Source of the DNA: a virus
Taxonomy: Duplodnaviria; Caudoviricetes
Virus record (IMG/VR): IMGVR_UViG_3300042470_001171
Span: 8,814 to 72,813 of that record
Length of the DNA stretch: 64,000 nt
Strand: one strand, 5' to 3'
Shown here: piece by piece, positions 8,543 to 29,078 of the stretch
How the letters are laid out: the number at the start of each line of letters is the position of its first letter
Numbering within the stretch: the first letter of the stretch is position 1
The notes under the pieces: model-generated
Database searches by the model: none
What the model was told of the DNA's origin: nothing
The model's input: only the letters and a program-made list of their open reading frames with translations
Position numbers and translations under genes: made by a program

Positions 8543-9220
8543 AACTCCCACGATGGTGGGGTATAGGATAGGTACGGGCTGGAGGAACGCCCACTAGAGT
8601 GGGGAATGCCAAGCCCAGTTTCACGCTGGAGCGATAGGGGCAAGACTCACCCCCACCAAAGTGGGGAGGTGTTTGCGAGGTGACGGGTCAGGCTAGCAAA
8701 CTGGCCCTAACCGAGAAACCCCCACCGGAGTGGGGAGGTGTTTGCGAGTTAAGGGTGCTGGCGCGGTGCCTGACACTGACGAAAGGGAAAAACCCCCACC
8801 GAAGCGGGGAGGTGTTTGCGAATGCCGAGTCAATCGTGGTGGGCCTAACAGCTACCCCGGAGAAACCCCCACCGAAGCGGGGAGGTGTTTGCGAGCAGTG
8901 GGATCGGCACATTCAACGTCGGAGCGGTGGTCGATCAACCCCCACCGGAGTGGGGAAGTGTTTACCAGGCTGTTGTAAACGGGTTTCCGGCACATAGAAA
9001 AACCCCCACGAGGGTGGGGATACTGTGTTTCAGCCACCTCAAGGGCCAGGGGCGTGATAGGATAAACCCCCACCGAAGTGGGGAGGTGTTTGCGCTTGGG
9101 CACCGTGGCGCAATACGGCTTTTTCTCGGAGAAACCCCCACCAAAGCGGGGAGGTGTTTGCGAGAGGGTGCCCTATGGGCTGTCACTATCGGCAGAAAAA
9201 CCCCCACCGGAGTGGGTCCA
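8543..9220 (-). CRISPR. CRISPR array 1: 11 type I-E-like repeats, consensus CGCAAACACCTCCCC(A/G)CT(T/C)(C/T)GGTGGGGGTTTNTC
   Basis: Hairpin anchors at 8547, 8590, 8651, 8720, 8794, 8867, 8940, 9004, 9068, 9136, 9202 with unique spacers; leader on the right. Confidence 0.92.
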
Positions 9221-9280
9221 CCGTCACCTACCACCAAATTTTCAAAGTTCTTGCCCCCACTATAGCACAAAGCTGGCCAG
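9217..9280 (-). promoter_or_regulatory. Leader/promoter of array 1
   Basis: Extended -10 TGCTATAGT, boxA-like GAACTTTGAAAAT; near-identical to 15032-15095. Confidence 0.75.
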
Positions 9281-9337
9281 TTGGTGCAGGCAAAGCAAAC
9301 CCCCGGCGAGGGCCAGGGGTGGCAGGCAGGCTAGGGG

Positions 9338-9577
9338 CTAGATCCCCAGGCCAGAATCCAGCCAAGTGTCCGTGCATCGCTCCCAGCCAAGCCCATCCAG
9401 CAGGGCGAGGATGCGGGCGGTGGTGAAGTGCTGGTAGTTAACCTCGTCGGGAGCCAACAGGCTGGCCTCGCTAGCAGCCCGCCAGAGGGCGTCTAGGGCC
9501 ATCTGGACAAGGCCCATGCGGGTGGCAGAGATATAAATGTCCCGCTGATCTCTTTGGTAGGGGTTGTCTCGTTTCAT
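9338..9577 (-). CDS. Hypothetical protein
   Basis: ACCACTTAC..GAGAGGA leader. Confidence 0.6.
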   Translation of the reverse strand: MKRDNPYQRDQRDIYISATRMGLVQMALDALWRAASEASLLAPDEVNYQHFTTARILALLDGLGWERCTDTWLDSGLGI

Positions 9578-9595
9578 GGCGTGATCCTCTCAGTG

Positions 9596-9930
9596 TAAGT
9601 GGTTGGTCCCCTCGCTGCGCTGTGGGGTGGCAGCGGTAGCCTAGGCTAGTCCTGAGTAGTCAGATAGGGAGTGCCTACTCCCACTCTGGGATCATGCTCG
9701 TGTTCAGCCTCGTATGCGGCTACATCGTCTGATGACATGGTGTTTAGTTCCTTCCCGTCCACCCAGTAACCACCGTTACTGTCGAAGATCAAGACGGTCT
9801 GATCTAGTTGGTCCTGAGTCATTTGAGAGGTTATGTCTCGAAGTTGTCGCCAAGTTATCATTTGTTTAGACTCCGTGGGTAAGTGGTTGGTCCCCTCGCT
9901 ACGCTGTGGGGTGGCAGCGGTGGCCTAGGC
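9596..9930. repeat. About 50-bp intergenic direct repeat (9596-9646 and 9879-9929)
   Basis: GTAAGTGGTTGGTCCCCTCGCT(G/A)CGCTGTGGGGTGGCAGCGGT(A/G)GCCTAGGC flanking ORF 9646-9861. Confidence 0.85.
9646..9861 (-). CDS. Hypothetical protein
   Basis: 71-aa ORF with GGAG RBS between the direct repeats. Confidence 0.65.
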   Translation of the reverse strand: MITWRQLRDITSQMTQDQLDQTVLIFDSNGGYWVDGKELNTMSSDDVAAYEAEHEHDPRVGVGTPYLTTQD

Positions 9931-26758: not shown

Positions 26759-27709
26759 ATGCCATTACCTTGTCTGCCAGTGCATGTGGTTGTTGCCACA
26801 CAGCCTGGAATGTCTCAAAGTTTCGAGTGCCAGATTCCTGCCTTCAGCGAAGAGTCCGATCCAGCTGCTGCTGCCGCTGTGTGGCTGTGGCGCAAGTGGG
26901 GCGATATGCTGGTGCCCCCCGCCCAGCCCTGGCCCTGGCCGCTGGAGCAGTACACGGTGTTTTATGAGCTGCCTTTTAGCGGGCGGTTAGTGTTTGAGTC
27001 CCAGGCAGGCTATGCGCCGCCAGCCTGTTGGCCTAGGCCCGTCCTGCAGGAGGTGGCGGTGTGATGGATTCGTTGTCGCTTGAGAAACAGCTTGAGGTCA
27101 ACACCTTTGAGCGGGTAGTCGATGGCCTAGCTTTTACTGAGGCTAACTTCAAGGAACTGCAGGAGATCTGCAAGGGCCTGAAGCGACTCGAAGTAGGTCA
27201 GCGGGCCTTCCTGGCTGATCAGGTCAAGTCGGCATGGGGGAAGCTGTCATGAGTGAGGCCAACCGCTTGATCGGCCTACTGCGCCGCATGCAACGCCACC
27301 GCAACAATGACCGGGTTCTGGCCATGCCTAGCACCGTAGGCCACTACCGTAAAGCAATGGCCCCAGATATTTGCCTGGGCTGCCAATACCACAGCCCTAG
27401 CAGCCGGTTTTACCTGCCCTGTGCGGTGCGCCCCTACGGCCCACCGGCCAACGATACCTGCCCTGATCAAGAGCCACGACCATGAACCTAGCCCGACAAC
27501 TGGCGGCCTATTGCACCGCCAACCCTGAAGAAACCAGCCGACTGGTGGAGGTCGCCATTGGCTACCTGCTAGAGCAGGCTAGCCCGGAGAACCTGCAAGC
27601 CATGGCAGCGCTGATGCCCAGGTCAGAGCCAGGGGCATCGTTGGCCTTGAGCCTGCGGATACTGGCTGAGGACAGGCGGACCTCGCCCTTTAGCCTGGGA
27701 GGGAAGTGA
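26759..27709 (+). CDS. Four small coupled hypothetical ORFs (26759-27064, 27061-27252, 27249-27485, 27482-27709)
   Basis: Overlapping start/stop codons; the third has C..C..Y..S..LPCAV.P Cys motif. Confidence 0.55.
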
Positions 27710-28632
27710 TGAACTACTACAACGAAAATGATCCCCAAGCGTCGGCATGGTTGAAGGAGTTGATAGCTCAGGGCGCTTTGCCGGATGGCGTTGTTGACGA
27801 TAGGAGCATTGAGGATGTCACTCCAATTGAGCTTGAGCCTTACGTCCAATGCCACTTCTTCGCCGGTATCGGCGGGTGGCCCTATGCCTTGCAACTTGCC
27901 GGATGGCCAGAGGACCGACCCGTATGGACCGGTAGTTGCCCATGCCAGCCTTTCAGCGCGGCAGGCAAAGGAGCGGGGACTGCTGATGAGCGGCACCTAT
28001 GGCCAGCGTTCTTTTGGCTCATTAGCCAGTGTCGCCCTGAGATCGTCTTTGGTGAGCAGGTTGCATCAAGCGATGCCCTTGGATGGTGGGATGTTGTATC
28101 AACTGACCTGGAAGCAGCGGACTACGCCTGCGGGGGAGTCGATCTATGCGCTGCGGGCGTCGGCGCGTTCCATCTGCGCCAGCGACTGTACTGGGTTGGC
28201 ACCTTGGTCAACACCCCAAGCCAAGGACAACAAGGGCGGCTACAGCCGTCGGTGGGTGGAGAACGTTCACGGGCGATCTCTCAACGATCAGGTGATGTTA
28301 GTTCCCTGGCCAACCCCGGCGGCCAGGGATTGGAAATCGAGCGCCAGCAACAAACATGGGGACAATGCCAGACCCTTGAACGAGGTAGCCAAGCTAACCC
28401 ATGGCGACACCCCGACTGGCTCCCCTGCCGAGACGGCAAAGCCCGGCCAGCTCAATCCGGCATTTTCCCGTTGGTTAATGGGGTTCCCGCCGATCTGGTG
28501 TGTGGCAGCAATCCTGGCATGCCGGCAAATGAAACGGCGGAAGCCAGAACCATGAGGCTACGCGGCTACGGAAACGCCATCGTTCCCCAGCTAGCCGCCC
28601 AGTTTATTGCAGCAGTCATGAGAGGCAAATAG
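27709..28632 (+). CDS. C5 cytosine DNA methyltransferase, main chain
   Basis: HFFAGIGG (motif I), GSCPCQPFS (IV), GEQV (VI), H.RQRLYW (VIII), RLRGYGNAIVP (X). Confidence 0.9.
   Translation: MNYYNENDPQASAWLKELIAQGALPDGVVDDRSIEDVTPIELEPYVQCHFFAGIGGWPYALQLAGWPEDRPVWTGSCPCQPFSAAGKGAGTADERHLWPAFFWLISQCRPEIVFGEQVASSDALGWWDVVSTDLEAADYACGGVDLCAAGVGAFHLRQRLYWVGTLVNTPSQGQQGRLQPSVGGERSRAISQRSGDVSSLANPGGQGLEIERQQQTWGQCQTLERGSQANPWRHPDWLPCRDGKARPAQSGIFPLVNGVPADLVCGSNPGMPANETAEARTMRLRGYGNAIVPQLAAQFIAAVMRGK
27785..28555 (+). CDS. Nested alternative-frame ORF, probable second MTase chain (true start likely internal, e.g. 27986)
   Basis: WSTPQAKD, WPTPAARDWK, LNPAFSRWLMGFP (motif IX-like, missing from the main frame). 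Confidence 0.65.
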   Translation: MALLTIGALRMSLQLSLSLTSNATSSPVSAGGPMPCNLPDGQRTDPYGPVVAHASLSARQAKERGLLMSGTYGQRSFGSLASVALRSSLVSRLHQAMPLDGGMLYQLTWKQRTTPAGESIYALRASARSICASDCTGLAPWSTPQAKDNKGGYSRRWVENVHGRSLNDQVMLVPWPTPAARDWKSSASNKHGDNARPLNEVAKLTHGDTPTGSPAETAKPGQLNPAFSRWLMGFPPIWCVAAILACRQMKRRKPEP

Positions 28633-28634
28633 CC

Positions 28635-28832
28635 ATGCAACTAAGCTCCCAGGCAAAGGCCACATTCCGCAAAGGCATTGCCCGCACCAAAGCCGCCCAG
28701 GCTGCGGCCAAGGAGCTAGCCGCCCTGGTGCTAGCCCAGCCAGACGCCCCGCCAGCCATGCAGGCCCTGGCCCGGCAGGTGCTTGATCCGGTGGTGGTGG
28801 TAATGGAGGAAGAGCAGCAGGACGCGGCGTAG
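28635..28832 (+). CDS. Hypothetical protein
   Basis: 65-aa ORF ending the operon. Confidence 0.5.
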   Translation: MQLSSQAKATFRKGIARTKAAQAAAKELAALVLAQPDAPPAMQALARQVLDPVVVVMEEEQQDAA

Positions 28833-28836
28833 GCCA

Positions 28837-29078
28837 GGCCCCACGGGTGTGGGGGTGAGTCTTGCGACTCTTGAGGCCCACTGCGGTGGGGGTGTCTCGA
28901 CTTGGGGAAAGGTGCCCCACCAAGTGGGGGTGAGTCGAGATGGCGGGGAGGCCCACTGCGGTGGGGGTGAGTCGGTTTAGCTCCTGTGCCCCACTAGGTG
29001 GGGGTGACTCCTACAGGGTTATGGTGTCCCACGGGGTGGGGGTGGCTCAGTAGCCTTTGAGGCCCCACGGGGTGGGGG
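28837..29078 (+). CRISPR. Seven-repeat ultra-short-spacer array (about 12-nt spacers, about 37-nt period)
   Basis: GGGGG anchors 28851, 28888, 28926, 28963, 29000, 29038, 29074; handle GTG(A/T/G)(G/C)TC. Confidence 0.8.

Follow-up and report, generated by a model that had tools for sequence, protein, structure and literature searches.

The DNA analysed here is a 64,000-nt stretch (the window, to which all positions refer unless stated otherwise) that corresponds to bases 8814–72813 of the 72,813-nt virus record IMGVR_UViG_3300042470_001171, designated G000, from a member of the Caudoviricetes. It encodes several proteins of type I-E CRISPR systems and carries dispersed clusters of short hairpins that resemble type I-E repeats. 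An earlier note on this stretch had remarked that the distances between these hairpins appear to fall in steps of about 6 nt and had proposed a natural ladder of CRISPR RNAs (crRNAs) building Cascade complexes of about two to eight Cas7 subunits. In what follows, we describe the cas genes and the hairpins, trace the length classes into related phages and argue, with a confidence set only a little above even, that the clusters give rise to two tiers of Cas6e-processed crRNA-like RNAs serving a reduced type I-E complex of the phage's own.

The cas genes of the phage

Four consecutive genes on the minus strand encode a 214 amino acid protein (13063–13707), Cas6e (204 amino acids, 12449–13063), Cas7e (417 amino acids, 11056–12309) and a short Cas5e (155 amino acids, 10617–11084). 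Cas6e (Cse3), Cas7e (Cse4) and Cas5e all score above the curated NCBIfam cut-offs (TIGR01907, 52.2 bits with a cut-off of 45.2; TIGR01869, 184.2 bits with a cut-off of 178.05; and TIGR01868, 107.9 bits with a cut-off of 68.95, respectively), and both Pfam (PF08798, E=1.6e-31; PF09344, E=1.3e-67; PF09704, E=2.7e-29) and PADLOC concur. Alignments to PDB entries were obtained for Cas6e (CasE/Cse3 chains, the alignments beginning at residue 43) and for the short Cas5e, which aligns to only the first ~150–160 residues of Cas5e.

The complex is not made up of Cas5, Cas6 and Cas7 alone: a divergently transcribed gene on the plus strand (13745–14596, ~283 amino acids) is related to the N-terminal half of Cas8e (Cse1). 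The relationship is seen at family level, with PF09481 being matched by 12 of the 19 members of the Cas8e-like family (best E=6.5e-13) over profile positions 1–57 and 98–230 only, out of 450. The homologues are 35–53% identical to the family member closest to the window protein, which itself has no direct Pfam match. To judge from these profile matches, the gene is half a Cas8e. In one relative, P0124 (445 amino acids), the N-terminal part of Cse1 is fused to a Cas5 domain, which points to joint action of the half-Cas8e with Cas5.

Three related phage records (G001–G003) were found via the Cas7 protein, with which they share 88–94% amino acid identity. Across these and the present record, which are 38–79% complete, there was no match at E≤1 to Cas11/Cse2 (PF09485) or to Cas3 (PF18019 for the HD domain, TIGR01587 for the core) in any of the four, and none to Cas1 (PF01867), Cas2 not having been searched for; the Cse1 model, run directly against the same four records, likewise returned no match. 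The apparent lack of cas11 is therefore borne out within these limits, and the link drawn in the earlier note between a missing Cas11 and a variable backbone seems a reasonable one, with the proviso that half a Cas8e appears to remain here.

The 214 amino acid protein at the head of the operon is predicted to combine an N-terminal PD-(D/E)xK nuclease fold with an alpha/beta C-terminal domain. Residues D30, E43-V-K45, Q56 and Y60 are invariant, the D...EVK...Q...Y motifs being kept across 15 relatives. Whilst a profile search of the PDB gave nothing meaningful, an AlphaFold2 (AF2) model built with the alignment of relatives (pLDDT 90.6) resembles, in its N-terminal half, the nuclease domains of SfsA, NucS and Card1-type proteins (Foldseek probability 0.9–0.99). 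Prompted by the I-E3 variant reported in PMC12669027, we also considered this protein as a hidden Cas11; the AF2 model and the Foldseek search, in which no Cse2-like fold was seen, speak against this.

Hairpin clusters and the units they delimit

The window contains 22 copies of the motif CCCCAC-N3-6-GTGGGG, where 0.04 are expected, and none of 100 shuffled sequences reached 22: the hairpins are genuine, their number lying far above chance level. With one mismatch allowed, there are 58 matches in the 72.8-kb record, 54 of them in 11 clusters and four solitary; the window holds 46 hairpins and nine clusters. Canonical type I-E Cas6e cuts after the sixth base of the 3' stem. Each cluster was read in the sense set by its flanks, with the cut placed at this same base, and on this basis the whole record yields 43 crRNA-like units, each starting G-U-N-N-N-U-C. 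Short units of 35–49 nt make up 28 of the 43, and not one is 61 nt long.

With loops and handles differing from copy to copy, TRF and generic repeat finding give no clean picture of the arrays; a motif-based and then a structure-based detector took their place. The motif detector had missed a compensatory CCCCAU/AUGGGG stem and a hairpin with a 5-nt loop, thereby scoring as single units one of 93 nt (50+43) and one of 76 nt, present in two records (39+37). At gathering thresholds, Rfam has no match in the window. The minimum free energy fold of the whole of array G (z=−1.75) is uninformative, because arms of different repeats cross-pair.

Two of the clusters in the window are arrays with a leader of their own. 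Array A (8547–9216, minus strand) has 11 hairpins and, in the RNA sense, units of 66, 68, 64, 64, 73, 73, 74, 69, 62 and 43 nt, most of the long ones carrying a 12-nt tag, TCGCAAACACCT, ahead of the stem. Array D (15096–15673, plus strand) has 13 hairpins and units of 63, 68, 49, 44, 49, 38, 37, 36, 43, 63, 39 and 35 nt. Within the cas operon lie cluster B (10517–10609, minus strand), with three hairpins downstream of cas5e giving units of 37 and 42 nt, and cluster C (12347–12440, minus strand), with three hairpins in the interval between cas6e and cas7e giving units of 43 and 37 nt. Cluster E (16797–16866, minus strand) consists of two hairpins and one 56-nt unit with a duplicated handle, cluster F (19748–19804, minus strand) of two hairpins and one 43-nt unit. 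Array G (28840–29076, plus strand) follows the cytosine methylase gene and comprises seven hairpins with units of 37, 38, 37, 37, 38 and 36 nt. The remaining two are cluster H (63416–63507, plus strand; three hairpins, two units of 39 nt) and cluster I (2628–2705, plus strand; two hairpins, one unit of 64 nt).

A common leader end, ...GGTGAC(G/A)GTG..., is found at four arrays: array A (9218–9242, minus strand), array D (15071–15094, plus strand) and two arrays in the 8.8 kb preceding the window. The other clusters lack this leader end and follow co-oriented genes. Clusters E and F lie on either side of a gene for a 432 amino acid ATPase (16874–18172, minus strand) with weak matches to TrwB/HerA and a PADLOC mad8 match (E=2.2e-11), which is followed by small open reading frames (ORFs). 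A cassette, TTGTGCCACTAAT...TATATTGACAA, is present three times with tandem-like spacing (5472–5563, 5811–5902 and 6224–6315), and relatives of it, GTGTGCCAGA..TTGTGCCA, stand after the terminal hairpins of clusters B (~10480–10510) and E (~16765–16795); this repeated cassette may be a promoter module of the phage.

Anatomy of the handle and repeat

Four genomes together provide 165 units, in 163–165 of which handle positions 1, 2, 6 and 7 are G, U, U and C, positions 3–5 being free. The U6-C7 pair follows every one of 165 internal hairpins but only two of 37 array-terminal ones (Fisher p=3e-37). The handle is thus retained only where a full handle-to-hairpin unit exists, indicating that it is this unit, and not the hairpin alone, that is the functional entity. 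Other IMG/VR contigs carry canonical type I-E arrays that share this hairpin and have a GUGUUUC(C/U) handle, and these served as a positive control for the method of measurement: their ~90 units measured 60–62 nt, a single 19-nt exception being a detection artefact. This anchors both the register and the 8-nt handle.

Comparison of orthologous units, scored as the minimum number of substitution events per site in 23 groups of orthologous short units, shows where the repeat can change. The rate is ~0.42–0.45 per site in handle positions 3–5 (29/69) and loops (41/92) and 0.04 in the stems (11/276), with no change at handle positions 1, 2, 6 and 7 (0/92). Nearly every repeat copy is unique, as though dissimilarity among the repeats were maintained.

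Unit lengths in this genome and in related phages

The table of repeat-to-repeat distances given in the earlier note was reproduced with one count of difference. Measured from start to start, the window has 37 distances (38 had been noted) in the same bins: 35–39 nt (15; previously 16), 42–44 nt (6), 49 nt (2), 56 nt (1), 61–64 nt (6), 66–69 nt (4) and 73–74 nt (3), with none outside them. Tests modulo 6 are nominally significant both for these distances (R6=0.375, Rayleigh p=0.005) and for the 43 cut-to-cut lengths of the whole record (R6=0.465, p ~1e-4 against a jitter null in which every length is shifted by −3 to +2), but in this one genome a period of 5 scores equally. Much of the signal is in fact a single narrow peak at 35–39 nt.

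To G001–G003 we added six further fragments from pattern and metagenome scans, giving a pool of 214 units, of which 145 are distinct at ~80% body identity and 102 are non-homologous to the units of this genome and count as independent. More distant Cas7 relatives, at 37–48% identity, exist. A profile scan of viral contigs returned only two known phages. Four short family fragments came from a metagenome scan, whose other matches were distant canonical-type Cas7 proteins (28–37% identity over most of the protein, or 50–62% over the first ~50 residues).

Amongst the 145 distinct units, the short lengths fall into three classes, of 35–40 nt (n=53, mean 37.72, standard deviation 1.25), 42–45 nt (n=14, mean 43.29, standard deviation 0.73) and 48–50 nt (n=4, mean 49.0), with no distinct unit at 41, 46–47 or 51–55 nt and a single one, of 42 nt, in the 41–42-nt gap. 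Of 13 distinct units between 41 and 44 nt, one lies at 41–42, a distribution for which a monotone tail has a probability of at most 14/8192. For distinct units of up to 55 nt, R6 (0.483) exceeds both R7 (0.426) and R5 (0.344), and the best period for those of up to 50 nt is 5.9–6.0. The eight independent units of 41–55 nt share the phase of the main peak (V-test p=0.0012), the bodies between handle and stem have modes at 14, 20 and 26 nt with none at 18, 19, 23 or 24, and the structure-based second detector finds the same short classes. Classes of 37, 43 and 49 nt correspond to 61 minus 24, 18 and 12 and are therefore in register with the canonical type I-E unit.

Long units behave differently. 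The 58 independent units of at least 56 nt (56–79 nt) give R6=0.135 (p=0.35) with a phase of 0.44 against 1.6, all 73 distinct long units give R6=0.109 (p=0.42), and no 6-nt phase emerges when long units with and without the 12-nt tag are taken separately (p=0.36 and 0.44). Lengths that the earlier note had listed as empty hold 20 of the 94 independent units within 35–74 nt: three at 40, one at 45, one at 60, two at 65 and 13 at 70–72 nt. The long bins that it allowed contain 38 of 54 independent units (0.70), close to the 0.67 expected from their width. Quantisation in 6-nt steps thus survives for the short units, whose classes replicate, and is lost for the long ones once relatives are brought in. 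The proposed ladder of two to eight Cas7 subunits falls with it, as the long units (60–79 nt) are unquantised and the 55-nt rung is absent save for a single 56-nt unit. It is a caution in itself that the neat ladder of a single genome (n=43) fell apart, as far as the long units are concerned, after 102 independent units had joined it.

Two tiers of units

Arrays with a leader have long units first and short units last, as in 63, 68, 49, 44, 49, 38, 37, 36... or, in a second example, 65, 74, 73, 71, 68, 69, 39, 37, 40, 37, 37. Not once in 63 cases is a long unit the last of a multi-unit array. The two kinds of unit also differ in how widely they are shared: in this genome, 19 of 28 short units are common to the relatives vs 4 of 15 long ones (p=0.013), and the direction is alike in G001–G003.

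Near-identical DNA is present in many runs labelled lake water metagenome. DNA contigs from one such run, X1, covering window positions 8500–16000, include numerous versions of arrays A, C and D that leave out units or have others in their place, showing that array content is polymorphic in the population. Taken with the pattern of sharing, these variants indicate that the long spacers turn over whilst the short guides form a conserved core.

Substitutions at every sixth base

In Cascade, every sixth base of the guide is flipped out and unpaired. The 23 groups of orthologous short units show a matching pattern: spacer position 6 has changed at 7 of 23 sites, as against 9 of 230 at positions 1–5 and 7–11 (Fisher p=1.4e-4), and positions 6, 12 and 18 together at 13 of 53 sites, as against 18 of 304 elsewhere (p=1e-4). 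The pattern points to short bodies that Cas7 binds in the canonical register and whose pairing is under selection.

Targets and transcripts

No protospacer of array A was matched in 50,697 phage records, and a comparison of all unit bodies with the four phage genomes gave only scattered partial matches. The best of these concerns a 77-nt unit of G001 (L021, ~22572–22650), 26 of 27 bases of which are found at record positions 7889–7915 of G000 and 12352–12378 of G003, in both cases ~240 nt upstream of an array; 25 of 27 are found within G001 itself. The match could represent a duplication derived from the leader or a spacer directed against relatives. The body of a 49-nt unit of array D (15335–15364) shares 16 of 16 same-strand bases with the 3' part of the Cas8e-like gene (14451–14480), a match that is statistically marginal.

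Metatranscriptome contigs from two studies (X13 and X19 from one, X20 from the other) span the cas genes and arrays A and D. They give neither ends nor strand, DNA carry-over is possible and we conclude nothing from them.

Other features of the window

The gene content of the window further includes an integrase, DnaB, the cytosine methylase mentioned above and a long tail gene. Beside the tail genes, a single ORF (52397–53473, plus strand) contains seven copies of a 144-nt (48-codon) repeat and probably encodes a repeat-domain fibre protein.

Proposed mechanism and competing explanations

On the reading that we favour by a narrow balance, the phage would assemble a complex from the N-terminal-half Cas8e, the short Cas5e, Cas7e and Cas6e, the PD-(D/E)xK nuclease being the product of the operon's first gene, and would supply it with two tiers of Cas6e-processed crRNA-like RNAs. 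The first tier would consist of the long units (56–79 nt), which are leader-adjacent, mostly carry the 12-nt tag, differ among sister phages and are continuous in length. The second would consist of the short units at the far ends of arrays and in the untranslated regions of operons, common to sister phages and of ~37–38, 43 and 49 nt. Past the 8-nt handle, these would leave 13, 19 and 25 nt, on the 6-nt grid of the canonical 61-nt crRNA, and would be expected to engage ~2, 3 and 4 Cas7 subunits. Their guide sequence would be under selection save at each sixth base, implying that they pair with targets as seed-sized guides. The anatomy, the short length classes, the invariance of the handle, the conservation of the short units and the sixth-base pattern are direct observations; cleavage by Cas6e, loading, the numbers of Cas7 and pairing with targets are what we infer from them on sequence grounds. 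More tentatively, and with somewhat more doubt than belief, we suggest that the conserved seed-sized guides (~8–20 pairing bases) belong to natural mini-Cascades that have two to four Cas7 and half a Cas8e but lack Cas11, and that these act as functional RNA-guided binders, possibly together with the stand-alone PD-(D/E)xK nuclease, and that the fast-changing full-length spacers have a separate role.

Several observations weigh against this proposal. The third short rung comprises four distinct units only, and the 55-nt rung is empty but for the one 56-nt unit. The steps between class means are 5.6 and 5.7 nt rather than exactly 6, the main short class is two-humped (bodies of 14 and 16 nt) and five consecutive units of 43–45 nt in a G001 array are possible tandem duplicates, making the second class less independent. 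For this genome alone, R5 (0.471) is about as high as R6 (0.465) and the best period is 6.2. In seven groups of long units, the sixth-base pattern is absent (3/45 vs 23/247), and the grouping of orthologues by body similarity inflates the apparent conservation of the body, though it leaves the positional pattern unaffected. Within the genomes of the phages themselves, matches to short-guide positions 1–5 and 7–11 do not rise above chance level (5, 6 and 7 vs 3.6, 4.4 and 3.0 expected), and 8–14 pairing bases would not suffice to single out one target in a bacterial genome.

Three other explanations have to be considered alongside the two-tier reading. The first in scope, a full ladder in which short and long units alike run in 6-nt steps and build Cascades of two to eight Cas7, draws on the fact that all 14 units of 60–74 nt in this genome lie inside the bins of the earlier note, with R6=0.465 overall, and that the lengths 37+6k include 61, 67 and 73, the last being more frequent than any other long length (12 of 73 distinct long units). 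It is very improbable nonetheless: the independent long units are out of phase, with lengths of 65 and 70–72 nt occupied, the long peaks at 64 and 69 nt are off the grid, separating tagged from untagged units does not rescue it and a period of 5 fits this genome just as well. At the opposite extreme, there may be no ruler at all, the short units being eroded old spacers or tandem copies, the hairpins mainly Cas6e cut sites that divide transcripts and the length classes inherited rather than selected. The position of the short units at the leader-distal, old end of the arrays, with a gradient from long to short, would fit such an origin, as would the placing of clusters B, C, E, F and G behind co-oriented genes or in the gaps separating them, the runs of equal-length units sharing a handle type and the remnants of half-deleted repeats that are present. 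A pure cut site, however, predicts that U6-C7 is needed equally after internal and terminal hairpins, or after neither, and this is contradicted by its distribution. The bodies of paralogues have fully diverged whilst their lengths have stayed within 35–40 nt, and neutral decay does not account for the sixth-base pattern; we consider the absence of a ruler unlikely, without dismissing it.

Alternatively, the short units could be Racr- or Cracr-like decoys or regulators that soak up or reprogramme the Cas proteins of a host type I-E system. Both repeat mimics in phages and multiplexed Cracr arrays whose spacers are shortened have been described, type I-E included (PMC10651486; 10.1101/2024.10.29.618823), and both handle and hairpin match the canonical type I-E repeat class of other contigs. 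Yet this phage has a Cas6e, Cas7e, Cas5e and half Cas8e of its own, with hairpin clusters inside the operon, and in those sources Racrs are solitary repeats and Cracrs are defined in elements lacking cas genes. We therefore judge a decoy role improbable.

Relation to known systems

The phage system is a derived type I-E variant rather than a full member of the subtype, because Cas11, Cas3, Cas1 (none detected in the incomplete records) and the 61-nt unit are missing. In its mode of action it would resemble engineered Cascades with short spacers and crlRNA/Cracr complexes. It shares with the canonical type I-E systems of E. coli, Thermus thermophilus and Thermobifida fusca (whose Cascades are known) the Cas6e, Cas7e and Cas5e proteins, the CCCCAC-N4-GTGGGG hairpin and the 8-nt handle, and its sixth-base pattern is in the canonical register. 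It differs in having half a Cas8e and a short Cas5e, with Cas11, Cas3 and Cas1 undetected. Where canonical systems have one or two arrays with repeats of 28–29 nt and spacers of 32–33 nt, the phage has 11 dispersed clusters with spacers of ~8 to ~45 nt, and its loops and handle positions 3–5 vary from repeat to repeat.

Cascades engineered to carry shorter or longer spacers have reportedly been described by Luo in 2016 (PMC5009729) and Songailiene in 2019 (PMC6859484). Such engineered complexes consist of laboratory RNAs in a full Cascade; the short lengths in the phage are natural, account for 28 of its 43 units and go down to ~8 nt past the handle. Cascade has one Cas7 per 6 nt, so that each 6-nt change in length adds or removes one Cas7, and its stoichiometry is altered by spacers shorter by 6, 12 or 18 nt, with spacers of 14–20 nt still allowing specific target recognition, according to Kuznedelov 2016 (PMC5159557). 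In the type I-Fv (I-F2) system of Shewanella putrefaciens, Cas5, Cas7 and Cas6 form a complex with no small subunit in which the number of Cas7 adjusts, the authors relating the freedom in crRNA length to loss of the large and small subunits (PMC4937334). That system belongs to another subtype, is chromosomal, has Cas3 and an adaptation module and has normal natural spacers, only engineered RNAs having been varied.

Natural RNAs of this kind have also been reported. Natural crRNA-like RNAs of 54 and 49 nt give type I-F complexes with five and four Cas7, respectively, as seen by cryo-electron microscopy in the Cracr preprint (10.1101/2024.10.29.618823). As described there, short-spacer crRNA-like RNAs occur naturally as CreA/CreR in hosts and as Cracr arrays in viruses, sometimes stacked in phages, as here; Cracrs, however, hijack host Cas proteins and match promoters of host cas or toxin genes, with spacers of 21–24 nt in the type I-E example, whereas this phage has its own Cas proteins and ~28 short units. 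Racrs are reported as phage repeat mimics that bind Cas6 and Cas7 in an aberrant complex without Cas5 and Cas8 (PMC10651486), and are solitary repeats that stand behind a promoter and form no handle-to-hairpin unit, whereas 54 of 58 hairpins here are clustered and each unit has a Cas5-type handle. We found no account in the literature that describes a phage combining a reduced type I-E complex encoded by itself with 13–19-nt spacers in arrays, although Table S2 of the Cracr preprint (219 RefSeq and IMG/VR candidates) or the clusters of Altae-Tran 2023 could include the family. The principle of fewer Cas7 subunits is not new, given the type I-F precedent; what is new is how many of the units are short (28 of 43), how extremely short they are and that the phage carries the set of Cas proteins.

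Implications

Cascades of altered length have so far come from engineered RNAs and from a few natural regulatory RNAs one or two Cas7 short. If the short units of this phage family are loaded, evolution would have arrived at a CRISPR locus whose principal output is Cascades with two to four Cas7, a type of complex that Kuznedelov et al. proposed as an ancestral state (PMC5159557). The mini-Cascade proposal, if true, would mean guides far below the length thought necessary for type I systems. Loading of the short units would also make this a very compact RNA-guided module, and would raise the question of what an 8–14-base guide is capable of inside a cell.

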